A stretch of 26,722 bases of DNA from positions 1 through 26,722 of the IMG/VR virus record IMGVR_UViG_3300005512_000281. One strand, 5' to 3'. Origin of the DNA: a virus (Duplodnaviria; Caudoviricetes). A program made the translations under genes and the position numbers. Shown piece by piece: positions 2,657-26,722 of this stretch; within the stretch, counting starts at the first letter, position 1, and every line of letters starts with the position of its first letter. The notes under the pieces were generated by a model. It did no database searches, was not told where the DNA came from, and saw only the letters and a program-made list of their open reading frames with translations.

Positions 2657-2983
2657 ATGGATTCCACTATAGAAGACTATGTAAATGGTAAGCTACCTCG
2701 AGCTAGGTCACGGAATATCGCTACCCAGCTTCAGATACTAAATCTCCCTTCTAAAGGAGACCTAGAGCAGGATAAGGTTCAAATTATCCAATTCTTTATA
2801 GATGAGTTTAGAAGTAGTCTAATACGTAGCTATGGTACGTCCTTGACTCATAGGATTAAGTATGGTAAACTCCATTCCAAGTTCTATAAAGACGGGTCAA
2901 AGCCTATACCCTGCTATCTAAAGGGGTCTGATTCAGAGATAGAGCAGATTGTACACAACCCTATACAGGTAATAAGAAAATGA
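2657..2983 (+). CDS. Hypothetical protein with a related SAP/HeH-like motif
   Basis: QLQILNLPSKGDLEQDKVQI; GAGG RBS; stop overlaps the next ATG (ATGA). Confidence 0.6.
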   Translation: MDSTIEDYVNGKLPRARSRNIATQLQILNLPSKGDLEQDKVQIIQFFIDEFRSSLIRSYGTSLTHRIKYGKLHSKFYKDGSKPIPCYLKGSDSEIEQIVHNPIQVIRK

Positions 2984-3189
2984 AACAATGTCCAGTATGT
3001 CAGGTAAAGATGGGGCCACGGGGAGAGGTCTATTTTTCTCATGGTAAGCAAGGTACCCGGGCTAGATTACATGCTAGAGTTTGTCAGTACGCTAGCCGTC
3101 CAGGGTGTATCAATGAATTCGAGGGTGAGATTCCTGAAAAAGATTTTTACAGACCCCTTGACACTTTGAATATTAATCTGCTAGACTAA
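2980..3189 (+). CDS. Small Cys-rich protein of a cyanobacterial/cyanophage conserved family
   Basis: CPVC...VYFSHGKQGTRARLHARVCQY...GCIN resembles a small family I recall from cyanobacteria; translationally coupled. Confidence 0.65.
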   Translation: MKQCPVCQVKMGPRGEVYFSHGKQGTRARLHARVCQYASRPGCINEFEGEIPEKDFYRPLDTLNINLLD

Positions 3190-6467: not shown

Positions 6468-7112
6468 ATGGTTCAACAAAAATGGCTTGAGCAACGGTTT
6501 GACCAAATGTTCACCAAGTTTGACCAGTTCGAGCAGAAAATTGAGGCTCAGTCTCAAGATATTAAATCCCTGAAGACTGACCTAAAAGAACAAAAAGTCA
6601 TTAACAAAGAACAACAAGCCGTTATTAAAGAGTTAACCACCAAAGTTCAAGAGCAAGGAATTATCATTCAAGAGTTAACAGCCAAAGTAGCAACCCTAGC
6701 AGCTAAAATCGAAACTCTAGCAGCTAAAGTCGAAACTCTAGAAGCTAAAGTTGAGATAATTTGCAACCAGTTGAAAACTATAGCCCCATTATTCCGTCAT
6801 CCTCTAGAGTCAGATAACAGCTTACTGCTAGACCCTGACTATAAGGAAGAGTTACGGGACACACTTGATGAAATAGAATTCCACAGTGCTAATGACATTG
6901 TAACAAGCTTGCCAGAGTATGAAGAAATCCTTGGCAACTACAAAAATGCTCATGGTTTAGCAAGTGGTTCTGGAAAAGCCCTATCGGGTTTCTATGTCCA
7001 AGTTTTAGGATACAAACCTCGTAAGATTCAGTATAAAGCTGGATATCACAAGGACATTGAGAAGCCTATCTATGACTGTGTAAGCAAACTATACCAAGCA
7101 GGGGTCTCATAG
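6468..7112 (+). CDS. Coiled-coil plus putative DNA-binding domain protein, paralog 1 (214 aa)
   Basis: AGGAG RBS; heptad repeats; C-terminal GKALSGFYVQVLGYKPRK..Y resembles antirepressor-associated domains. Confidence 0.8.
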   Translation: MVQQKWLEQRFDQMFTKFDQFEQKIEAQSQDIKSLKTDLKEQKVINKEQQAVIKELTTKVQEQGIIIQELTAKVATLAAKIETLAAKVETLEAKVEIICNQLKTIAPLFRHPLESDNSLLLDPDYKEELRDTLDEIEFHSANDIVTSLPEYEEILGNYKNAHGLASGSGKALSGFYVQVLGYKPRKIQYKAGYHKDIEKPIYDCVSKLYQAGVS

Positions 7113-7126
7113 ATAGTCTCTAGCTT

Positions 7127-7195
7127 TGTGACAGTCTGTAAACTGTCACATTGTCTAGAGAATCAACCTAGCCCATGCTATGATAGTTGTATAAA
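7127..7195 (+). promoter_or_regulatory. Palindromic-operator promoter, copy 2
   Basis: Perfect TGTGACAGT-N6-ACTGTCACA (7127-7150); TG-C-TATGAT (hexamer 7179-7184); N4-GTATAAA. Confidence 0.85.
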
Positions 7196-7214
7196 CACCA
7201 ATCGGAGAAATAAC

Positions 7215-7838
7215 ATGGTATCACAGAAATGGCTTGAGCAACGATTTGACCAAATGTTCACCATGATTGAGGCTCAGTCTCAAGATATTAAATCCCTGAA
7301 GACTGACCTAAAAGAACAAAAAGTCATTAACAAAGAACAACAAGCCGTTATTAAAGAGTTAACCACCAAAGTTCAAGAGCAAGGAATTATCATTCAAGAG
7401 TTAACAGCCAAAGTAGCAACCCTAGCAGCTAAAATCGAAACTCTAGCAGCTAAAGTCGAAACTCTAGAAGCTAAAGTTGAGATAATTTGCAACCAGTTGA
7501 AAACTATAGCCCCATTATTCCGTCATCCTCTAGAGTCAGATAACAGCTTACTGCTAGACCCTGACTATAAGGAAGAGTTACGGGACACACTTGATGAAAT
7601 AGAATTCCACAGTGCTAATGACATTGTAACAAGCTTGCCAGAGTATGAAGAAATCCTTGGCAACTACAAAAATGCTCATGGTTTAGCAAGTGGTTCTGGA
7701 AAAGCCCTATCGGGTTTCTATGTCCAAGTTTTAGGATACAAACCTCGTAAGATTCAGTATAAAGCTGGATATCACAAGGACATTGAGAAGCCTATCTATG
7801 ACTGTGTAAGCAAACTATACCAAGCAGGGGTCTCATAG
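7215..7838 (+). CDS. Coiled-coil/DNA-binding paralog 2 (207 aa)
   Basis: Start moved from 7128 to ATG 7215: GGAG RBS, MVSQKWLEQRF matches the paralog N-termini, and the upstream extension is promoter DNA. Confidence 0.85.
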   Translation: MVSQKWLEQRFDQMFTMIEAQSQDIKSLKTDLKEQKVINKEQQAVIKELTTKVQEQGIIIQELTAKVATLAAKIETLAAKVETLEAKVEIICNQLKTIAPLFRHPLESDNSLLLDPDYKEELRDTLDEIEFHSANDIVTSLPEYEEILGNYKNAHGLASGSGKALSGFYVQVLGYKPRKIQYKAGYHKDIEKPIYDCVSKLYQAGVS

Positions 7839-7852
7839 ATAGTCTCTAGCTT

Positions 7853-7921
7853 TGTGACAGTCTGTAAACTGTCACATTGTCTAGAGAATCAACCTAGCCC
7901 ATGCTATGATAGTTGTATAAA
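7853..7921 (+). promoter_or_regulatory. Palindromic-operator promoter, copy 3
   Basis: Identical to copy 2 at +726. Confidence 0.85.
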
Positions 7922-7940
7922 CACCAATCGGAGAAATAAC

Positions 7941-8522
7941 ATGGTATCACAGAAATGGCTTGAGCAACGATTTGACCAAATGTTCACCATGATTGAGGCT
8001 CAGTCTCAAGATATTAAATCCCTCACGAAAAAAGTTCAAGAGCAAGAAAATATCATTCAAGAGCAAGGAATTATCATTCAAGAGCAAGGAATTATCATTC
8101 AAGAGCAAGGAATTATCATTAAAGAGTTAACAGCCAAAGTAGCAACTTTGGAAGCTAAAGTAGACATAATTTGCAAGCAATTAGAAACTATTGCGCCTTT
8201 GCTCCGTCATCTGCTAGAGTCCGAAAACAGTTTGCTGCTAGACCCTGACTATAAGGAAGAGCTACGGGATACACTTGATGCAATGGAGTTTTACAGTGCT
8301 AATGATATTGTAAAAAGCTTACCGGAGTATGAAGAAATCCTTAGCAACTACAAAAATCCCCATGGTTTAGCGAGTGGTTTTGGTAAAGCCCTATCGGGTT
8401 TCTATGTCCAAGTTTTAGGATACAAACCTCGTAAGATTCAGTATAAAGCTGGATATCACAAGGACATTGAGAAGCCTATCTATGACTGTGTAAGCAAACT
8501 ATACCAGACTGGACTGGCATGA
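7941..8522 (+). CDS. Coiled-coil/DNA-binding paralog 3 (193 aa)
   Basis: Start moved to ATG 7941 for the same reasons; QEQGIII repeats. Confidence 0.85.
   Translation: MVSQKWLEQRFDQMFTMIEAQSQDIKSLTKKVQEQENIIQEQGIIIQEQGIIIQEQGIIIKELTAKVATLEAKVDIICKQLETIAPLLRHLLESENSLLLDPDYKEELRDTLDAMEFYSANDIVKSLPEYEEILSNYKNPHGLASGFGKALSGFYVQVLGYKPRKIQYKAGYHKDIEKPIYDCVSKLYQTGLA
8037..8120 (+). repeat. 21-bp tandem repeat x4 encoding heptads
   Basis: CAAGAGCAAGGAATTATCATT x3, preceded by one variant unit. Confidence 0.95.
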
Positions 8523-9175: not shown

Positions 9176-9727
9176 ATGGTATCACAAAAATGGCTAGAAC
9201 AACGCTTTGACCAAATGCTCACAAGGTTTGACGGTCTTGAGACAGAAGTCCGTGAACTTAAAACTGAAAATAAATTTCTTCGCTCCCAAGTGGAAAAACA
9301 GGGATTAATTATCCAAGAGCAGGGACTACTCATTCAAGAGCTATCCGCAAAAGTCGAAACTCTAGAAGCTAAAGTTGAGATAATTTGCAACCAGTTGAAA
9401 ACTATAGCCCCATTATTCCGTCATCTTCTAGAGTCAGATAACAGCTTACTGCTAGACCCTAACTATAAGGACGAGTTGCGGGATACATTAGACGCTATGG
9501 AGTTCTACAGTGCTAACGATATTGTAACAAGCTCGCCAGAGTATGAAGAAATCCTCAGTAACTACAAAAACGCTCACGGTTTTGGAAAGGCCCTATCGGG
9601 TGTTCTAAGTTTTCAACCACGAAAAATCCGTAACAAGGCAGGGTATCACTCGGAACTTGAAAAGCCGATCTACGATTGCGTTAGTAAACTATATCAATCC
9701 GGATTGTCAACATACAAGGTAGGGTAA
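9176..9727 (+). CDS. Coiled-coil/DNA-binding paralog 4 (183 aa, most diverged)
   Basis: AGGAG RBS; same N-terminus and C-domain, with short deletions. Confidence 0.85.
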   Translation: MVSQKWLEQRFDQMLTRFDGLETEVRELKTENKFLRSQVEKQGLIIQEQGLLIQELSAKVETLEAKVEIICNQLKTIAPLFRHLLESDNSLLLDPNYKDELRDTLDAMEFYSANDIVTSSPEYEEILSNYKNAHGFGKALSGVLSFQPRKIRNKAGYHSELEKPIYDCVSKLYQSGLSTYKVG

Positions 9728-9789: not shown

Positions 9790-11379
9790 ATGAGTATTGT
9801 TACATTCCCGGAACGTGTCCAAACTTACCTAAATAAGCCTAATTCTAAAAGATTACCATTTAGCTGCACATTAGGGGTTTTGTCAGGTACGTCTAAAGTA
9901 TCAGAGATATTGGAATTTGCCACTCACTCATTGAAAGCGGGCGCAGGGGTTAAAATTGTAATTGATGAAACATACAGACTCCCCAAGCCTAATGATAACC
10001 TAAACCTAATGGTAATTCTAGACCCTGACCATTCTGACTGGAATTTTCTAGAACAAGATACAGGGGGCAATGTCTGGGGAGAAAATTATATTGACTCAGC
10101 CCTTAAAATAACCGTAAAAGACAATATCACATCTATTGCAGCCAGTTTCCGGGCTATTGAGAACGCTGTAGTAAACGGGTATAAGGATATTGCAATCGAC
10201 CTATCGGAACTACGACCAAGAGATAGTGTAAACTCTGATGGCATAATAGCCAGTGGCCCATCCCAATTTATAGATATTTATCATGCTTTAGAGTATTACC
10301 TTAGTCATGGCAGCATTCACTCTCTGCTTAGGTTATTAGGTGTTTTAAATGATGTTATCCTGCGAGGAGGTCAGAAAAAAGGTATTATCACAAGTGCTAT
10401 ACATAGTGCTAGCCCTTATCTAGAAGATTATCTAGATGTCCCATTAGTCTCATTGCGAGGTTCCCATAAGAAAGGGGTTATTCTCCACAAGGAGTGGCTT
10501 GGTGATGATATTATGCAGAAAATCTTCGACAAGATTAATACTGAGTCTATGTTTATTCAGAAAGAGAATGAGGATTCCGAGCTATACAGTAATGTATGTA
10601 TGGGAATTAGTCTAAGGGATAAGGGTACTTGTTTAATTGGGCGTGTCAACCTGGGTCAGGTTACGGAATTTAGTCAGATAGTCCAGGCTTATAAAATGGC
10701 TACTTATAAGACAATGGAAATCATGCTATCGTGGCGCAAGACCAGCTCTAAAGCTAGCACCTGGGCAAGTATTGAGGATGACTTACAGGTAGCTATTGAC
10801 CCTATGGGGCTAGCTAATCTATTAGCAAGATTTGAGTATTCCTATGAATATTTTGTTAATGAGATGTCTAGTCCTAATACCACTGACAGCCTAATTCTAG
10901 CACTACGGGAAGCATATAAGGAGTCTACAAAGGTAGCTGATTTGTTCTGCGAGGAGAATGGGCTACCAAAGATGGAGCGAATTCATTGTGTTGAGCCAGC
11001 TCAAACCCATAGTTACCGGACAGTAGATGTAGACGGGTATACAACCTGTCGGGGAATCTGGCCACCTTTCTCACGTATTGTAAACCGTATGTCAGACAGG
11101 GAAGAAATTTCTACTTTTGACCATGGGCCAGTAGAAACAAAGATTTCCCCTGAGCTACATTTTGAACTCTGTAACCAGTGGCAAAAAATGATGGATACCT
11201 ATGGCCGCCCTCACACAATTAGTTACGATACTTGGGAAAATTTTAATGCTAAAGTCTACAAAAAGTGGTATAATAGTTACTTAAGAACACTTTACTACAA
11301 CTTCACTGACACCTACAATGACGACTATGCCCGTAAACGGGTAAAACAAGTTAGCTTGTGTAGTGTATGTGAAGCATAG
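9790..11379 (+). CDS. nrdA: Ribonucleotide reductase alpha subunit, compact cyanophage-type class I
   Basis: RLPFSCT, DLSELRP..ASGP, RGG, NVC, GTCL..VNLG, LYY radical-relay pair, C-terminal CSVC; a ferritin-like beta gene lies downstream. Confidence 0.8.
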   Translation: MSIVTFPERVQTYLNKPNSKRLPFSCTLGVLSGTSKVSEILEFATHSLKAGAGVKIVIDETYRLPKPNDNLNLMVILDPDHSDWNFLEQDTGGNVWGENYIDSALKITVKDNITSIAASFRAIENAVVNGYKDIAIDLSELRPRDSVNSDGIIASGPSQFIDIYHALEYYLSHGSIHSLLRLLGVLNDVILRGGQKKGIITSAIHSASPYLEDYLDVPLVSLRGSHKKGVILHKEWLGDDIMQKIFDKINTESMFIQKENEDSELYSNVCMGISLRDKGTCLIGRVNLGQVTEFSQIVQAYKMATYKTMEIMLSWRKTSSKASTWASIEDDLQVAIDPMGLANLLARFEYSYEYFVNEMSSPNTTDSLILALREAYKESTKVADLFCEENGLPKMERIHCVEPAQTHSYRTVDVDGYTTCRGIWPPFSRIVNRMSDREEISTFDHGPVETKISPELHFELCNQWQKMMDTYGRPHTISYDTWENFNAKVYKKWYNSYLRTLYYNFTDTYNDDYARKRVKQVSLCSVCEA

Positions 11380-11392
11380 ACCATACTATCTA

Positions 11393-11409
11393 AGGGGGCT
11401 AGTCCCCCT
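11393..11409. promoter_or_regulatory. GC-rich palindrome (RNA hairpin or HetR-like box)
   Basis: AGGGGG-CTAGT-CCCCCT between the nrdA stop and the next ATG, with no U-tract. Confidence 0.4.
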
Positions 11410-11413
11410 AACC

Positions 11414-11821
11414 ATGATGAAATTATTAGACCAATTGATTGAAAAGTTCCCCAACAACCCAGATATATACAGTCGATATCTGGGAGAGCCTAGTCTGCAA
11501 GAACTCGTTTGGCGTTTAATTGAGTCCTACCAGATGCCAGAAGATTTCCTATTAGGAATGAGTATCCGGCAACAGTTGTCAGCTATGATGGAAGCATTGA
11601 CAATTGCTCCCGAATTATACAAAGACTATCAAACCGAGTACTATCTCACAATAGATGAGCACATATTAAAGGCTCGAGTAGCTGGTACAGGGCTAGATGA
11701 TGTCCCAGCAGAAGAATTAAAGTTAAGTGTAGTAACTTCAATTATCCAATTAGACTTAGCCTCATGGCTAGAATTGCAATTAGATGCCATTTCAACTCTC
11801 TACGGTAGAGCCATTACCTAG
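11414..11821 (+). CDS. Hypothetical protein
   Basis: Track ORF 11363-11821; in-frame ATG 11414 after the palindrome preferred. Confidence 0.65.
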   Translation: MMKLLDQLIEKFPNNPDIYSRYLGEPSLQELVWRLIESYQMPEDFLLGMSIRQQLSAMMEALTIAPELYKDYQTEYYLTIDEHILKARVAGTGLDDVPAEELKLSVVTSIIQLDLASWLELQLDAISTLYGRAIT

Positions 11822-11987
11822 CATTGCTTCTAGTAATAGAAGTGTAAAGGTAACCCATACAACAAACCTAGCTACTTCTGACCCGGTTCGAGTAGCTTTT
11901 TTAACGTCCCCCCTAGAGTATGAAGCTAGGCTACTTATCCAGAAAATATTAGATTTAGAAATTCAGACACGATATGACCTCTATTAA
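11784..11987 (+). CDS. Hypothetical protein
   Basis: 67 aa, fills the gap before nrdB. Confidence 0.45.
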   Translation: MPFQLSTVEPLPSIASSNRSVKVTHTTNLATSDPVRVAFLTSPLEYEARLLIQKILDLEIQTRYDLY

Positions 11988-12783
11988 CGATTTATATGTA
12001 TCACGCTGTCACAAAATTGGTGACCGTTTTGTGCCCCATTTCTGGAATCCAGAACCAGTTAATTACTATCAACCGTGCCTGTACGGAGATTCTAGAAAAC
12101 CAGCTAACCAAGATGAGATAGGAATTCTAAGGAGAATTATTGGCATAGGACTAGAACTGGAAATAGAAGCAGGTAAGCTTGTTTTAGCGGGTTTAAATAA
12201 GGAGCTACCTACCGCTGATAGTGCACTAAAGCCGTTACTGAAAAGCAATGCAGCCGATGAGTCCCGACACTATAAGGGGTTTCAGAATGCAGCGAAAACT
12301 TATGGTAGTGATACCCAGGGTCTAGGTGAAATAGTTAAAGAGTGGTTAGACCTAGCGGATAAAACCCATCCTATCTATGTTACTGCTGTTCTTGAATCTA
12401 GTCTATTTTTAGTGACCTTAGGATTAATGAGGATAGCAGGGTCACCTTCAATTACACGTCTATCATTTGAGATAGCCAAAGATGAGTATCGACACGCTGC
12501 CACTAACGTTGCAGTTAGCAAGGCATTAGGTTTGTGGGAATACCAAGACCTTCTAGAATCATCCTTAGAGTGGTTATTTCAGAATAAATCCATAAGACTA
12601 CATAATAACAAAAAACTCACGTTAGACGATGGATTAAGGTACTCTAGAGAGCTATTTTATAACTTAGAGTCACCGGAGTTAGACAGCTTATCGACTTACT
12701 CCACTCATAACCTTCCTTTTGAGCTAAGAAATGATTATATGTACACAGAGAGAGTTGTAGATGAGAACTATAGCATTGCCTAA
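11974..12783 (+). CDS. nrdB: Ribonucleotide reductase beta subunit (ferritin-like)
   Basis: Dimetal ligands ELEIE, DESRH, VLES, DEYRH; WNP near the N-terminus. Confidence 0.75.
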   Translation: MTSINDLYVSRCHKIGDRFVPHFWNPEPVNYYQPCLYGDSRKPANQDEIGILRRIIGIGLELEIEAGKLVLAGLNKELPTADSALKPLLKSNAADESRHYKGFQNAAKTYGSDTQGLGEIVKEWLDLADKTHPIYVTAVLESSLFLVTLGLMRIAGSPSITRLSFEIAKDEYRHAATNVAVSKALGLWEYQDLLESSLEWLFQNKSIRLHNNKKLTLDDGLRYSRELFYNLESPELDSLSTYSTHNLPFELRNDYMYTERVVDENYSIA

Positions 12784-13246: not shown

Positions 13247-13418
13247 GTATACATATCATTCGTACTGCCACTAAGATGCAGATAAAAAGTACCAACGTAG
13301 GCGGGAGGTAAGTAAATAATAAGTACCAGAGGAAAATTCTCAATAAGAGAACTATCGTCTTTAGACCCCACTCAAAAGGTTCCCGGATAAACAAATAGTC
13401 AATAGTTTTTTCTAGCAT
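13230..13418 (-). CDS. Possible small two-TM membrane protein
   Basis: 62 hydrophobic aa exactly filling the gap between two + genes; its ATG overlaps the thyA ATG. Confidence 0.45.
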   Translation of the reverse strand: MLEKTIDYLFIREPFEWGLKTIVLLLRIFLWYLLFTYLPPTLVLFICILVAVRMICILRVTL

Positions 13419-14538
13419 GGATTATCTCGATAACTACCCTAATTCTAGCATAGACTTAAACCAAAATGCAATACCCAGCAACATTGGAACCTATTCAGCC
13501 ATAGTAACTGGGTGGACTGACCCCTCAAAAGTACCATGGGAACTGTTCCCTAACTCCCTAGTCAGAGGGCATCTGTACTCTGTAGCAGGGGTTGAGAGGC
13601 TAATAGTCAACTTGAGTCATAACCCTCAGGTGGACAGAGTGTATCTGCTAAAACTTTCAATATACGATAGTAACAGTGGGTCTATAGACTTAGCTAGTCA
13701 ACGCCTGAATGATATTGGGTTTCCCTATAGTGTAATCACTGACCTGTCTGAGGTTCAAAAGCTAGATTATGGTAACAGACCTAAACTTGAACCTCTAAAG
13801 CCCCTGACTAGTGTAACATCGTCTGATACCAGCATGGATGGACTAATAGTAAAAGGTAGTAACCTAGACCTGATGCAAGCCAAGATAATGGATTATATTT
13901 TAAGGCTGGGGGAGTATAACCCTGTTAGAGGTTTCACTGCATTACCTTGCATCACATCCGTACTACACCCTTTACCTGTACCGGAATATCACCCGTACTT
14001 TGACCAGTGGACAAGACCACGCCCAGATAACACTGTGGAGTACACCTATGGTGACTTCTTAGCGAATAATCTAGATATTCTCGCTACGCTGGACAATAGT
14101 ACACAACGTGTGATACACCTAGAATTAGACTCAAAACATCCACCTTGCCTTGCCATGGTACAGCGGTATAGAGACCGCCTTATAGCAACATTCCGGAGCC
14201 ATGACATTGGGCAAGCCTATAAACCAAACCTAGAGGCACTCTGTTACCTAGCATCCAAACTAGCAGATATCAAGACACTGATAGTAGTGTCTAACGTGCC
14301 ACACCTATATGACTGGGATAGACCAAACCTTGCTGCTGGGTTTGTTCCTGACCCTATAGGGAATTTCACAGTTTATTACCTAGATGGTAAGTTCTGTATA
14401 GAACAGGACGGGTCTTTGATTGTTCAGGCAAAAAGTAGAAGGGGGATAGTCCGAAAACTAGCCCGATTATACCCACAAATGGATTTAGAGCATTCGTTCT
14501 ACCTATTTAGCCAAATTGCTGCGAGTAAAAAGTGTTGA
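13417..14538 (+). CDS. thyA: Thymidylate synthase, cyanobacterial-type fusion (MtrA-like N-domain, TS core, DUF4346-like C-domain)
   Basis: TGWT..GHLYS..G...L..NP; YTYG; PPCL catalytic Cys; FRSHD....PN; DPIGNF. Confidence 0.7.
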   Translation: MDYLDNYPNSSIDLNQNAIPSNIGTYSAIVTGWTDPSKVPWELFPNSLVRGHLYSVAGVERLIVNLSHNPQVDRVYLLKLSIYDSNSGSIDLASQRLNDIGFPYSVITDLSEVQKLDYGNRPKLEPLKPLTSVTSSDTSMDGLIVKGSNLDLMQAKIMDYILRLGEYNPVRGFTALPCITSVLHPLPVPEYHPYFDQWTRPRPDNTVEYTYGDFLANNLDILATLDNSTQRVIHLELDSKHPPCLAMVQRYRDRLIATFRSHDIGQAYKPNLEALCYLASKLADIKTLIVVSNVPHLYDWDRPNLAAGFVPDPIGNFTVYYLDGKFCIEQDGSLIVQAKSRRGIVRKLARLYPQMDLEHSFYLFSQIAASKKC

Positions 14539-19193: not shown

Positions 19194-19248
19194 CTATAAA
19201 CAAAAAAAAAAGTGGTATGTCTAGATATACCCTACTAGAAGTAATTAT

Positions 19249-21068: not shown

Positions 21069-23112
21069 ACTATTCTCCCATGTTGGCTCAGAACAAACTT
21101 GGCTTCACAATATTGAAGGTGATGTTGTCAACACATCTATGGAGCACTACCTAGACCAGCGTTCTAGGAGAGACATAGTTGATGAGTTATCACGGTATGA
21201 TAATACAATATGGATACCGCGTAATGGCTATTTTGATAAAGTTCAACCAAATCACGGCTATGAATGGTTTAAAGGTGTTGACTTGGAAGTTATTATCATA
21301 AATTTAGCTTTGTGGTATGACTACATCTCTAAGGATGTCCCTGAGCTATTCCAGCAAGCAAGTCGTACTACAGAGTTATATAAGGAAGTAGCCGAATACA
21401 AAACCAAGTTACTAAACACAAACCAGTATTATAGTAAGTGGCTAGGCTCTGAGAAACGAATTGAACTACTGACCCGAGGTATCAATGCCAAAGAGCTTGA
21501 AATCACTGATTTAAAATCAGAACATAAGCGCCAGTTAGATGCTAAGGATGAAGAAATAGCAGAGCTAGAGAAAAAATTGGTTGATGCCCGCAGGGATACC
21601 AAAAGCTATGAGCTGCAAGTTAGTGAGCTTATGAGACTTAGAGACCAAATCTCTAGAGAAAAACTAGAGTTAGCACATCAGAGAGCTGAAATGGCCACTC
21701 TAAACCCTGAACAGATGCGACGGGACATAGAGACTCTAACCATGGCGAATACTCAGCTAAAGGCTAATCAAGATGCCCTAATTAAGGAATTAGCCGAAGT
21801 AGATAAAAAACATCAAGAGGTATCAGAACTACTAGGGGACTCCCAAGCCGATATCAAAAAAGTAATTCTAGTTTACCAAAATGAGGGGGTACATCTCAGG
21901 TTTATTAAGGAAACGGAACTGGAAGGGGTTACTACCTGGGTATTTAGGAATCTAGGGTTAGGGATATCACCCCAAAGGGTGGAATCAGTAGCAGCTCAAT
22001 TGCCATCTGTAATTACCTGGCTAGAGGATGTACCTAAGACCAGGGTTAGTAAGGGGTGTGTGGAAATTGTTGTGGACGGTAGACTAATTGAAGAAAAACT
22101 AGATTACCAGCAAAAGGAATGGTTGGTGGAACTGGCAAAATCTGAAGAGAATTTAGCCATATTTGCTCCCAAAGGTTCTGGTAAAACTGAGCTTGCTATT
22201 AACTATCTAGGTTTAGTAGCTAGCCAGGTTCCTAACTGCATAATTGAGTTTTTACAACCAAAGCCAGATGAGGTGTCCTATATTGACCTAGGTGGCTATA
22301 TATTTCAGCCTACCTATATAGGGTTTGATGATTGTTATGCTGGGCTTAATAGGTTAGTTGAAGTTTATACCCAGAGAAACCAAGAAAAGGAACAAGCTAT
22401 GAAATCCGGGGTGAAAATACCTAAACACCCTCCGATGTTTTGGATTATAGATGAATTCCAAGCCCTTGTAATGCATCTTGAGCAAAAAGAGGCTAAGGCA
22501 TTGTGTAAAGATGTTATGAATGCAGTATCATTAGGCAGAAGTCTAGGTATTAATATCCTAATTATTGGGCAATTAGCAAACGTTACTACCTACCCAGGAT
22601 GGACTAAAGCAGGCTTAAGTCAGTTTAACTGCGTCTATCTACAAGATGCTATACAGGTTGGTATAGATTATTCTAGGACATCTGGTGAGAAAAGTGCACT
22701 TGAGAAACAGTGGAATGAATACCTGAACTCAAACAGAAAATACTATGCCCTAGTTAGAAGTGCTGCTAGAAATGGTGTAATTTACGACTTGCCTAAACCT
22801 AGACAATACACTAACGCCCTAGAGGTTCCTCAACTCCCCCAACCTATAGAGGTAAGACTTGATAAATTTATTAGTTTAGACATGCCCAGAGGAACAGCTA
22901 AACTAAGACAGTCTGAAAACTCAAGCCTAGATACTAACGAAGACGGATTGGCAAAATGTAAAAAATGTGGTTCAACTAACTTTAAGGCTAAAAATGGGTA
23001 CAGATTAAATCGCCACAACCAAATTAAGGTTGCTTGCCGTAATTGCAGTGCTGAGCCTATACTAGTAACAATAGACCCTACCTTAGATACTAACGGGGAA
23101 TTGCTCGATTAG
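21058..23112 (+). CDS. FtsK/HerA-family ATPase with N-terminal coiled coil and C-terminal zinc ribbon
   Basis: Walker A APKGSGKT, Walker B WIIDEFQ, GRSLGINILIIGQ; CKKC...CRNC. Confidence 0.75.
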   Translation: MMLKLFSHVGSEQTWLHNIEGDVVNTSMEHYLDQRSRRDIVDELSRYDNTIWIPRNGYFDKVQPNHGYEWFKGVDLEVIIINLALWYDYISKDVPELFQQASRTTELYKEVAEYKTKLLNTNQYYSKWLGSEKRIELLTRGINAKELEITDLKSEHKRQLDAKDEEIAELEKKLVDARRDTKSYELQVSELMRLRDQISREKLELAHQRAEMATLNPEQMRRDIETLTMANTQLKANQDALIKELAEVDKKHQEVSELLGDSQADIKKVILVYQNEGVHLRFIKETELEGVTTWVFRNLGLGISPQRVESVAAQLPSVITWLEDVPKTRVSKGCVEIVVDGRLIEEKLDYQQKEWLVELAKSEENLAIFAPKGSGKTELAINYLGLVASQVPNCIIEFLQPKPDEVSYIDLGGYIFQPTYIGFDDCYAGLNRLVEVYTQRNQEKEQAMKSGVKIPKHPPMFWIIDEFQALVMHLEQKEAKALCKDVMNAVSLGRSLGINILIIGQLANVTTYPGWTKAGLSQFNCVYLQDAIQVGIDYSRTSGEKSALEKQWNEYLNSNRKYYALVRSAARNGVIYDLPKPRQYTNALEVPQLPQPIEVRLDKFISLDMPRGTAKLRQSENSSLDTNEDGLAKCKKCGSTNFKAKNGYRLNRHNQIKVACRNCSAEPILVTIDPTLDTNGELLD

Positions 23113-23403
23113 AAATTTCTTATTTCTATCCTCAATTAGCTTAAGACTATCCAGATAACCTGTTTTTACTTTCTCACGGCTAGTGTGAGGGTCTAATAGG
23201 TATCTGGTTATTCTTTTATGGCAGAGATTATACAGGGGCCAGTCCGGAGCTACTCTTAAGTCTAAAATGCTAGCCGCATCGTCTAGAACAGATTGAAGCA
23301 TAGCAGTATCTACCGTGTCTACATCAGGGTCGTCTATACGGGTTAACTCAATAGCCTCCCTACGTCCAACAAAGGAAATAAATTGCTCTACTGTTATAGC
23401 CAT
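23083..23403 (-). CDS. Head-tail adaptor, DUF1320/Mu gp36-like
   Basis: T.EQF...G..E..ELT..VD..L..LDDAASILD..C..ITRY.L pattern. Confidence 0.75.
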   Translation of the reverse strand: MAITVEQFISFVGRREAIELTRIDDPDVDTVDTAMLQSVLDDAASILDLRVAPDWPLYNLCHKRITRYLLDPHTSREKVKTGYLDSLKLIEDRNKKFLIEQFPVSI

Positions 23404-23465
23404 TTCTGTGATAATAATATTATTATATGGGTATACCCAGTTAAGGTCAATTTTTTTAGTTAACT

Positions 23466-23627
23466 ATGATTATAGAACTGGCTCTAACTTTGATGTTAAA
23501 TTCTGAACCAATTCCTAACCCTGAGCCAGATGAGCGAGGTTCAGGTCGTATATATATGAGAGGCTCTGGTGGAACCGGGGAAGGTATCGCAGATGGGACA
23601 GGACAGCCCAGTGGTAGGGGCAGGTAA
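23466..23627 (+). CDS. PatS/PatX-like RGSGR peptide precursor (53 aa, not in the ORF track)
   Basis: MIIELALTLMLNSEPIPNPEPDERGSGRIYMRGSGGTGEGIADGTGQPSGRGR; fills the intergenic gap; ACTATG start context as at 1880, 19933 and 26450. Confidence 0.75.
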   Translation: MIIELALTLMLNSEPIPNPEPDERGSGRIYMRGSGGTGEGIADGTGQPSGRGR

Positions 23628-23697
23628 TGTGCCAATTTATAAACTGTCACAGTCTGGAGTAAAATCTAGACTGTGTTTTCTATAATAGGGGTATAGA
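23628..23697 (+). promoter_or_regulatory. Palindromic-operator promoter, copy 6
   Basis: TGTGCCAAT-N6-ACTGTCACA (23628-23651), 29 nt, TATAAT (23681-23686), N4-GTATAGA; overlapping 11-bp inverted repeat 23648-23675. Confidence 0.85.
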
Positions 23698-23718
23698 CAG
23701 AAAACAGAGGATAGTGCC

Positions 23719-24111
23719 ATGAACCAACTACCTAAGAAAGACGTATCACAAATTTTGCTCGATGGGTTTTTTAATTACCCTGATAAAGTTTTCTTACCTG
23801 CTACTGTGGGAATAGATAGCATCCTAATAGGCTCATCTGGGAAGTACAAAGTTAGCCATATAGTACAGGATAACGATAAATATATGGTTGTGGCTAATAA
23901 ATTTATAGAACAGCCAATGTGGTACCATGTGGATAATCTACTACTAGACGGCTATGAAATAGATTTAAACTATGTTGACATAAATGATACAGACTATGTC
24001 ATACTAGGGAGTATGGTTCCGGGTTTTAAGGGTTTCCAAATCTACCGTATAGCAAAACACAGTCCAGATAAGGGGTTGACAGTATATGCGACATCTCAAT
24101 ACAAAAAATGA
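23719..24111 (+). CDS. Hypothetical protein
   Basis: 130 aa, GAGGA RBS, own promoter and terminator. Confidence 0.75.
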   Translation: MNQLPKKDVSQILLDGFFNYPDKVFLPATVGIDSILIGSSGKYKVSHIVQDNDKYMVVANKFIEQPMWYHVDNLLLDGYEIDLNYVDINDTDYVILGSMVPGFKGFQIYRIAKHSPDKGLTVYATSQYKK

Positions 24112-24155
24112 TAGACTCCCACTAATGTAAGAGCCTACCAATAGAATCGAACTCT

Positions 24156-24190
24156 ACTAAGCTTAGTACTACACTAGGCTTAGTTTTATT
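24156..24190 (+). terminator. Terminator between convergent genes
   Basis: ACUAAGCUUAGU-ACUAC-ACUAGGCUUAGU (12 bp, one G-U), then UUUAUU. Confidence 0.6.
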
Positions 24191-25172
24191 ATGTAAGTAA
24201 GTCAGTAAACAGGAAACCACCACCTACTTTACCAGTAGCCCCTAACCCTGTCAAAACTGGGCTTTGTTCAATGATAACTGGTGCAGTATACGTCTGGTTA
24301 TCCTCATTAAACATAAATTTCTTAACTTTAGGATACCCCTCTAAGACATACTGATAGGCAAAGGACATATCAAAACGAGAGAAAGGATTACCTGAACCCG
24401 ACATAGAACCTAAGCTTTGGGCAGAAGGTGCATAGAATAACAGTGCCTCTTCATCCATTAAATCAGCCAGCAAACCTGTGGTTTCATCTAGATAAACACG
24501 CTCAGCAACTCGAATACCTCTAGATAGTCGGAAATACCGGGCTAACATGGTGTCGTCTAGCATTTCATTGGTAGTAGGGTTATAATGGGATTTTATCTCA
24601 TCATTATTAACCAATGCATTATAAACTTTTGGACTAACTACCATACTATTCGGCATTGCCCCAATCTGAGCACGAACAGCCTCCTTAGCTGCTAGAACAT
24701 CTGCTAAAGGAGTACTATTAGCAGCATTCCATTTAGTGCTAACTGTACCTGTACAAGATGTCTCATAAAGGCTTGAGTCAGAGATTAAATCAATAACTGC
24801 TTTTTCACGTCCTAAAGCTAGCTTATCTAGAACTACACGAATAGCGCTCAATTGTAAGCCATTTAGTCCTACAGCTTCACTCTCCTCAACATGTTCAATG
24901 GGAATTGACGCTGCTAAAGCATCTTGGGTTAAAGAGTAGCCTGTGAAATCATACTGGGGAGTATAGGATAAAATGTTTGAGCCAGGAGTACGCTTAGTTT
25001 CTTCAATAGCAAAACTATCTTTACCAAACGTTACAACTTGACCTGCTCTGACAGGGGTTGGTACTGTAGGGGCAATAAACTCAGCTACCATAGCACCTTG
25101 CGGGATATACCCTTGTGCGAATTTGGTAAAAATCGGGTCTATACCCCGGACTTGTTTTAAATTAAGTGACAT
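24189..25172 (-). CDS. Major capsid protein (HK97 fold, capsid E-like)
   Basis: IDPIFTKFAQGY..IAPTVP..FGKDSF, KW..ANSTPLADV..IGAMPNSMV; gene order protease-cement-capsid. Confidence 0.85.
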   Translation of the reverse strand: MSLNLKQVRGIDPIFTKFAQGYIPQGAMVAEFIAPTVPTPVRAGQVVTFGKDSFAIEETKRTPGSNILSYTPQYDFTGYSLTQDALAASIPIEHVEESEAVGLNGLQLSAIRVVLDKLALGREKAVIDLISDSSLYETSCTGTVSTKWNAANSTPLADVLAAKEAVRAQIGAMPNSMVVSPKVYNALVNNDEIKSHYNPTTNEMLDDTMLARYFRLSRGIRVAERVYLDETTGLLADLMDEEALLFYAPSAQSLGSMSGSGNPFSRFDMSFAYQYVLEGYPKVKKFMFNEDNQTYTAPVIIEQSPVLTGLGATGKVGGGFLFTDLLT

Positions 25173-26450: not shown

Positions 26451-26500
26451 AGTATTTCATCTGCTTAGTCATACCCAAACTATAATCTGGAATCTAGACA

Positions 26501-26542
26501 ATAGTAGGTAGATAACTGCACCTGCGTAGTATAATCTTGTAC
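26501..26542 (-). promoter_or_regulatory. NtcA-type class II promoter upstream of the head operon
   Basis: Minus strand GTA-CAAGATTA-TAC (26542-26529), exactly 22 nt, TACTAT (26506-26501), 50 nt before the protease ATG. Confidence 0.55.
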
Positions 26543-26722
26543 TATGAAATGGCTGTAATGGACTATAACATAATTGATAGTACATTTGAACTACCGGGGA
26601 ATTGAGAAAATAAAATAGGCTCAAAGTACCAGGTAAAAGGAGTTTGAACTACCGGGGAATTGAGAAAATAAAATAGGCTCAAATTTTCAGCCAAAAATTA
26701 CAGCGATTTTAGCAAAGTAGTA
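26526..26722 (-). repeat. Right copy of the long inverted repeat, running off the window end
   Basis: Reverse complement of 884-1080; contains identical 41-bp direct repeats at 26585-26625 and 26643-26683. Confidence 0.95.

Follow-up and report, generated by a model that had tools for sequence, protein, structure and literature searches.

The DNA analysed here, a linear virus record of 26,722 nucleotides (hereafter the window) with an estimated completeness of 48%, codes for a capsid protein, a protease, an adaptor, a primase, a ribonucleotide reductase and a thymidylate kinase. A preliminary description of its sequence had pointed to a 53-codon open reading frame (ORF) carrying the heptapeptide DERGSGR, and translation of the plus strand returns both. 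As also described, this ORF fills the gap beside the adaptor gene, which is read divergently from it; a 130-aa gene without assigned function closes the gap on the other side, followed by the major capsid gene (Table 1). Profile matches of the neighbours gave no recognisable receptor-like or regulator gene adjoining the ORF. No other-frame ORF of 100 aa or more overlaps it, and its GC content by codon position is 0.56/0.56/0.33, the third-position value being 0.29-0.40 in eight other genes of the window.

Table 1. Features of the ORF and its surroundings, and the NblD-like gene, in window coordinates.
Feature	Position	Strand	Basis
NblD-like gene, cyanobacterial-host marker	2980-3189	+	NF053522, E 4e-20, 71.1 bits against a cut-off of 80
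Head-tail adaptor (Mu gp36-like), divergent neighbour	23083-23403	-	phrog_195, PF07030
Promoter-like element (-10-like hexamer plus GGGTATA)	23421-23440	+	family D1; 80% identical to 23681-23700
Candidate PatS/PatX-like peptide precursor ORF, 53 codons	23466-23627	+	translation; homolog P0003; strain in run X1
Residues 1-11, short hydrophobic N-terminus	23466-23498	+	simple Sec rule; relatives
Residues 12-21, acidic Pro-rich linker, strain-variable	23499-23528	+	comparison with P0003 and X1
DERGSGR	23529-23549	+	same in P0003; no listed X1 difference in 23526-23551
ERGSGR, the PatS-6 hexapeptide that binds HetR	23532-23549	+	PMC4649674 (available part)
Gly-rich tail with degenerate echoes	23550-23627	+	dispensable in one relative
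Echo RGSGG	23559-23573	+	
Echo SGRGR	23610-23624	+	
Intrinsic-terminator-like hairpin, 20 nt past the ORF stop codon	23648-23675	+	scan of 23000-24300
Second copy of the promoter-like element, before the 130-aa gene	23681-23700	+	
130-aa gene, no assigned function	23719-24111	+	other DNA here in X1; loose ends at 23667, 24106 and 24111
Major capsid protein	24189-25172	-	phrog_1005; 31-36% identical to cyanophages S-TIM5 and S-CBWM1

Signals compatible with a separate transcription unit were sought around the ORF. Three terminator-like sites were found in 23000-24300, against 0.7 +/- 0.8 in shuffled sequences, while sigma-70 matches near the ORF do not exceed those in shuffles and are weak alone. 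The heptamer GGGTATA occurs 13 times in the window (5.7 expected), several times just 5′ of genes (23429-23438, 23689-23695, 19226-19232 and others), and may serve the phage as a promoter or operator. HetR binding at the promoter-like element before the ORF was considered and rejected, the palindrome at 23429-23438 having 4 bases, not 5, between GGG and CCC; GGG-N5-CCC stands at chance level in the window. No DIF1 element (TCCGGA) lies within 120 nt of the ORF; the nearest of the five copies in the window is 223 nt upstream, at 23243 inside the adaptor gene.

The occurrence of DERGSGR was then compared with chance expectation. In 300 simulated windows the heptapeptide did not appear and ERG[ST]GR appeared once. 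A looser DNA pattern, DERG[STRCW]GR, gave 4 matches in 20 cyanobacterial genomes (~118 Mb) and 7 with the reversed control; from this 20-genome count, a match of seven residues is expected by chance about 0.001-0.002 times per 27-kb window. This figure speaks against DERGSGR being a coincidence in some small phage protein of another kind, be it membrane-associated, a virion component or an RG-rich binder of nucleic acids. The tail of the peptide is, however, rich in Gly and Arg, and the pentapeptide RG[ST]GR is not rare: it occurs by chance twice more in the window, as out-of-frame copies inside other genes on the minus strand (near 426 and 16703). With the evidence from relatives and from other viruses presented below, we consider such a coincidence quite unlikely.

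Protein searches recovered one independent homolog of the ORF peptide, P0003. Its contig count (4) and longest contig (57062 nt) agree with those of a 94% identical capsid and of an 80% identical NblD, so that P0003 probably comes from the same related phage as these two. Seven changes separate it from the ORF in residues 1-28: residues 1-7 are identical, 4 of the 10 linker residues are changed, and none is in residues 21-28, which leaves PDERGSGR intact. The similarity stops exactly at the final R of the motif. The Gly-rich tail is missing from P0003 and replaced by an unrelated one, in which 14 of 18 residues agree with what 23629-23685, behind the ORF stop codon, would encode; the frame enters the terminator region. 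This boundary of conservation, with the RG-rich tail as the lost portion, argues against a chance match in an RG-rich protein.

A second diverged strain was detected in run X1 (labelled marine metagenome), which covers 23463-23609 (147 nt) with 18 differences and no gaps. The eight differences that were listed give M10V, N18S, E20V and G36E plus three synonymous changes, and none falls between 23526 and 23551; the other ten are near the ends of contig matches and may include the start codon. Beyond 23609, two altered residues are followed by RGR and a stop in frame, all four codons being synonymously changed, and frame, length and stop position are thus those of the ORF. The X1 contigs pass into unlike DNA upstream of 23463 and downstream of 23667, and the gene therefore persists in a slot with changing neighbours; 23828-24035 is without cover in X1, which is no evidence by itself. 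Run X2 gave no cover of the ORF.

Conservation of the motif against variable flanks, a test set beforehand, held in both P0003 and X1. These alignments argue that the ORF is a real gene under selection, since synonymous changes leave frame, motif and RGR-stop intact and the flanks differ, although the 21-nt unchanged stretch is modest evidence alone because only two diverged strains, both close relatives, were available. The two echoes of the motif noted in the preliminary description are present, but they are dispensable: they are missing in one relative and RGSGG is changed in the other. Met1 is favoured as the start, since the next Met, residue 10, is replaced by L in P0003 and by V in X1. 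Three further candidates were set aside: L001 and L024, at 99.6-99.8% identity to the window, represent the same phage, and L025 is a chance match in a portal-like protein. No match to the ORF peptide was found in cultured phages, PDB sequences or the ESM Atlas; more distant homologs may exist. A search of 301 cyanobacterial genomes with the N-terminus gave no homolog (best E 0.014), so the gene is not a recent copy of any host gene sampled.

These comparisons also bear on whether a host-derived patX- or patS-like gene is carried as near-neutral cargo in the variable slot between adaptor and capsid genes. The replacement of DNA in X1, directly upstream of the ORF and at the place of the downstream gene, is what such cargo would predict, and the run of the P0003 frame into the terminator region resembles a relaxed constraint on the tail. 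Yet X1 keeps frame, length, motif and RGR-stop through synonymous changes, and the motif recurs in unrelated phage genes (see below), which makes neutral carriage distinctly unlikely.

The assignment of the gene to a cyanobacterial virus was borne out by two kinds of matches. The closest cultured relatives of the capsid (31-36% identity) and of the primase (25-33%) are cyanophage proteins, albeit at low identity, and the window carries the NblD-like gene of Table 1, whose confirmed genome matches were all in cyanobacteria (20 of 20) and which therefore indicates a cyanobacterial host. Members of this phycobilisome degradation factor family were also seen in three other viral records; none of the three has a PatS-like ORF, the fragments yielding a single unconvincing RGSGR ORF. 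On NblD in cyanophages, the literature searched gave nothing beyond a review.

A more precise host was sought by several routes. An insensitive DNA-match search, in which two candidates were scored per genome and no CRISPR array was found, gave no spacer-like match to the virus in 401 cyanobacterial genomes. No close prophage was found in 301 cyanobacterial genomes, the nearest capsid being 34% identical, and the capsid, NblD and plasmid matches did not converge on a single host lineage. The best NblD matches span genomes with hetR and genomes without detected hetR (G002 and G412). Because no host could be assigned, the earlier proposal that the phage suppresses heterocysts in a heterocyst-forming host is left unsupported. 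The evidence on host type is mixed and, on sequence grounds, leans towards a non-heterocystous filament.

The ORF peptide was compared with the known RGSGR-bearing inhibitors of cyanobacteria. Against the PatS model NF047415 it scores 13.1 bits (cut-off 30), DERGSGR aligning to model positions 7-13. Like PatS of Anabaena/Nostoc PCC 7120, it is the product of a stand-alone small gene and combines DERGSGR with a short hydrophobic N-terminus without a Sec signal. However, PatS has 13-17 aa and a C-terminal motif, whereas the 53-aa phage peptide has an internal motif followed by 25 residues; the acidic Pro linker, the missing DIF1 promoter and its being encoded by a phage also set it apart. HetN of Anabaena PCC 7120 likewise holds an internal (E)RGSGR, which according to the available part of PMC7761841 must be released or displayed, but HetN is a full-size reductase-like protein and the phage product a 53-aa peptide.

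As for PatX, the model NF047413 gave no match to the ORF peptide at E <= 1. This is a narrow model, which passes its cut-off in 55 of 301 cyanobacterial genomes and in none of a set of five genomes, four of them with hetR. A hydrophobic N-terminus, a Pro-rich stretch, an internal RGSGR and a variable C-terminal tail are common to the phage peptide and PatX of the Asl2332 type, which this model describes. The best 30 PatX-model loci of the 301 genomes, presumably from heterocyst formers, served for a closer comparison. These host proteins have 67-84 aa, a basic start and an uncharged run of 12-18 residues, none of which applies to the phage peptide; they have H before the motif in 28 of 30 cases and R or K after it in 29 of 30, and the phage peptide has neither; and DIF1 lies upstream of 29 of the 30 loci, in contrast to the phage gene. 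The hydrophobic N-terminus given in the preliminary description is indeed present, its best 9-residue hydropathy (2.21) falling within the host PatX range (2.03-2.48), but it is short and unlike the signal peptides of host PatX. By a simple rule combining the charge of the first five residues with the length of the uncharged run, it is no canonical Sec signal (net charge -1, run 7; host PatX +1, 12-18). In the wide sense of PatX, as papers citing the definition render it in their available parts, the name covers small proteins with a hydrophobic N-terminus and RG(S/T)GR, all of which the phage peptide has. Overall, the phage peptide falls outside PatS and PatX as modelled, yet most likely works like them.

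Small RGSGR genes in the vicinity of hetR were surveyed in a non-random set of 45 genomes, namely 15 from the NblD search and 30 mid-sized ones without a PatX-model match. hetR was present in 20 of them, and 17 of 28 hetR-family loci had a small RG[ST]GR ORF within 1.5 kb. Among these hetR-linked peptides are short forms, with 17-33 residues before the motif, and forms with two to four motifs in tandem; I, L, V or F follows the motif in 15 of 24 copies. With 23 residues before the motif, I or L behind it and the echoes, the phage peptide lies within this range. It shares no homology with the hetR-linked peptides of non-heterocystous cyanobacteria outside the motif, and its gene is not linked to hetR. 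Furthermore, E precedes the motif in just 1 of the 24 host copies, the DE prefix of the phage peptide being PatS-like; an acidic form, DD(E)RGSGR-IT, is found in Leptolyngbya sp. JSC-1 (L147 and L175). The phage peptide is closest to the RGSGR genes, short or with tandem motifs, that lie next to hetR in non-heterocystous cyanobacteria.

Some of these host loci deserve mention in their own right. L147 and L175 (genome G001) are small ORFs about 14 kb apart that combine a hydrophobic stretch and an acidic linker with RGSGR-IT; one of them adjoins a hetR paralog, and both are possibly unannotated PatX/PatS paralogs. L155, L164 and L165 are hetR-adjacent PatX-like ORFs with 2-4 tandem RG(S/T)GR motifs and do not pass the NF047413 cut-off.

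The preliminary description had proposed looking for the motif in related viruses, and DERGSGR does recur in cyanophage genes unrelated to this one. IMG/VR was scanned twice with restricted codons, which gives a lower bound, and copies inside a long ORF of another frame were dropped. The first scan yielded 115 copies of DERGSGR, of which 107 were dropped (35 loci are only about 600 nt) and eight were left: this phage, a 103-aa gene, one 271-aa gene and five without a plausible gene. The second gave 66 loci with 24 true copies, of which 15 were dropped; eight of the remaining nine belong to one family of 270-280 aa and the ninth is L464. That most viral copies lie inside the long ORF of another frame is in favour of coincidence, as is the 271-aa gene (L305/L513), whose phage shows no cyanobacterial sign among the neighbouring ORFs, so that the motif also arises outside cyanophages. 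On the other hand, the in-gene matches surviving the filter are mostly in cyanophages.

Beyond the ORF, DERGSGR is thus present in three phage gene families unrelated to it, of which two belong to clear cyanophages. The 103-aa gene (L439:16107-16418, minus strand) has a good ribosome-binding site and no homolog among cultured phages; its DERGSGR lies 12 residues from the start. It belongs to G425, a temperate cyanobacterial phage with a complete genome of 89.5 kb. This genome carries DUF3854, DUF6464, Uma2, pentapeptide-repeat and sigma factor genes, and its replication protein is 41-45% identical to cyanobacterial CyRepA1. The members of the 270-280-aa family (L443:2422-3249, L450:2431-3237, L499:2419-3261, L469, L487, L488, L497 and L505) carry an internal (D)DERGSGR followed by I or V, sit behind a DnaB helicase and have no PHROG match; nblA is found in two of four tested genomes, the other two being small fragments. 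By analogy, this family is possibly an embedded inhibitor in the style of HetN. Finally, L464 (2904-3098, minus strand; genome G426) is a 64-aa ORF with a Gly-rich tail ending in GTGTR-stop; its start is basic, it has an uncharged run of 19 residues, and the predicted signal peptide ends in VQA immediately before DDERGSGR. It would be the clearest exported PatX-like phage gene among those found, a pentapeptide-repeat gene being the sole hint at its host.

Other forms of the motif were scanned as well. PHRGSGR, the host PatX type, was never in a small hydrophobic ORF among 120 sampled viral matches (of about 370). PxPDERGSGR was found at 10 viral loci, with a plausible gene in this phage only, and a single match in 401 cyanobacterial genomes did not hold on inspection.

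The known biochemistry gives these observations a possible meaning. According to the available part of PMC4649674, ERGSGR binds HetR with a Kd of 7 nM in a cleft of the hood domain and releases it from DNA; HetR grips the free N-terminal amino group of the hexapeptide, and peptides of seven residues or more have lower affinity. Maturation of PatX involves export and the peptidase PatP, and in Nostoc full activity requires export; for PatS and HetN, cleavage is assumed to be cytoplasmic (PMC12756182, part available). Unrestrained HetR leads to heterocysts, necridia, fragmentation and lysis, and an ancestral role of HetR in forming necridia is a conjecture of the authors (PMC7761841, same part).

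We favour the interpretation, with a probability of about 0.6, that the phage gene encodes a precursor trimmed by host proteases to a HetR inhibitor. The 53-residue peptide would be made in the infected cell of a filamentous host bearing hetR, and host proteases would trim it to free ERGSGR; a cut just before E23 would be needed, because N-terminal extension past six residues hinders HetR binding. In the absence of a canonical signal peptide, cytoplasmic processing of the PatS kind seems likelier. The freed hexapeptide would then bind and silence HetR, probably at first within the cell where it was made. That cell, and perhaps neighbouring ones, would be held vegetative and attached to the filament, and the terminal fates driven by HetR would be blocked, i.e., necridia and filament breakage, and heterocysts if the host forms them. 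It is thus likely, as far as sequence can tell, that the virus interferes with differentiation of its host cell.

The identity of the peptide as a PatS/PatX-like HetR inhibitor, put forward in the preliminary description, therefore stands in part: the exact high-affinity ligand ERGSGR and the conserved motif speak for it, but the PatS and PatX models failed and DIF1 is lacking. Diffusion of the peptide along the filament, also proposed there, is not supported, since the ORF peptide has no canonical export signal. We counted in favour of an inhibitor the residue conservation, the hetR-linked look-alikes, the recurrence in phages and the known binding of ERGSGR to HetR, and against it the unassigned host, the failed models, the lack of a Sec signal and of DIF1, and the HetR-independent effects of PatX. 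A complex prediction of the HetR hood dimer with residues 12-45 (score 0.01, mark 0.32) is evidence for neither side.

Alternatively, the peptide could be a working RGSGR signal with a target other than HetR, acting in a HetR-independent PatX pathway of a non-heterocystous host or between infected cells. Mutant transcriptomes of Leptolyngbya BL0902 indicate that PatX effects are largely independent of HetR there (PMC11298460, available part), the residue after the phage motif resembles the non-heterocystous type, and L464 has DERGSGR right behind a predicted signal peptide. Nevertheless, HetR is the sole receptor with measured binding in the available parts of PMC12756182 and PMC4649674; the ORF peptide is without a canonical export signal, and no candidate receptor gene was recognised beside it. 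We regard such a target as unlikely.

The recurrence of the motif invites a broader interpretation of HetR inhibition, which we offer tentatively and would sooner doubt than assert: phages of filamentous cyanobacteria may repeatedly and independently have evolved genes delivering DERGSGR to shut off HetR, so that the filament could not sever the infected cell through necridia or terminal differentiation. The motif might then be delivered in four forms, an equally tentative division: a short precursor as in this phage, a signal peptide (L464), a 103-aa protein N-terminus (G425) and the 270-aa family.

The PatS/PatX-HetR system is the standard bacterial example of Turing-type patterning. In the full-text literature searched, mostly open-access, neither a phage-encoded PatS or PatX nor any viral inhibitor of this system was found, and the available parts of PMC7761841, PMC10811720 and PMC13342950 mention phages only in other contexts. 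If true, a HetR inhibitor made by a phage would mean that viruses steer multicellular development and nitrogen fixation in their hosts, and would provide a handle on what HetR and PatX do in filamentous cyanobacteria without heterocysts. Should the motif have evolved repeatedly for this purpose, viruses would have hijacked a signal of bacterial patterning, a hint that cell death driven by HetR defends against them.

Elsewhere in the window, four tandem coiled-coil paralogs of about 180-236 aa (6468-8522 and 9176-9727, plus strand) were seen, the first two nearly identical and the family matching only generic coiled-coil proteins. They are followed at 9790-12783 (plus strand) by short ribonucleotide reductase alpha (529 aa) and beta (269 aa) genes with two small ORFs between them, and at 13417-14538 by a thymidylate-synthase-like gene with an archaeal-type model match. 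Finally, a repeated element lies at both ends of the record (1-54 and about 26470-26720) and near 1000 (about 910-1100). In L001 and L024 the right end of the window is joined, reversed, to position 1080, pointing to either an inversion or a differing assembly at the repeat.
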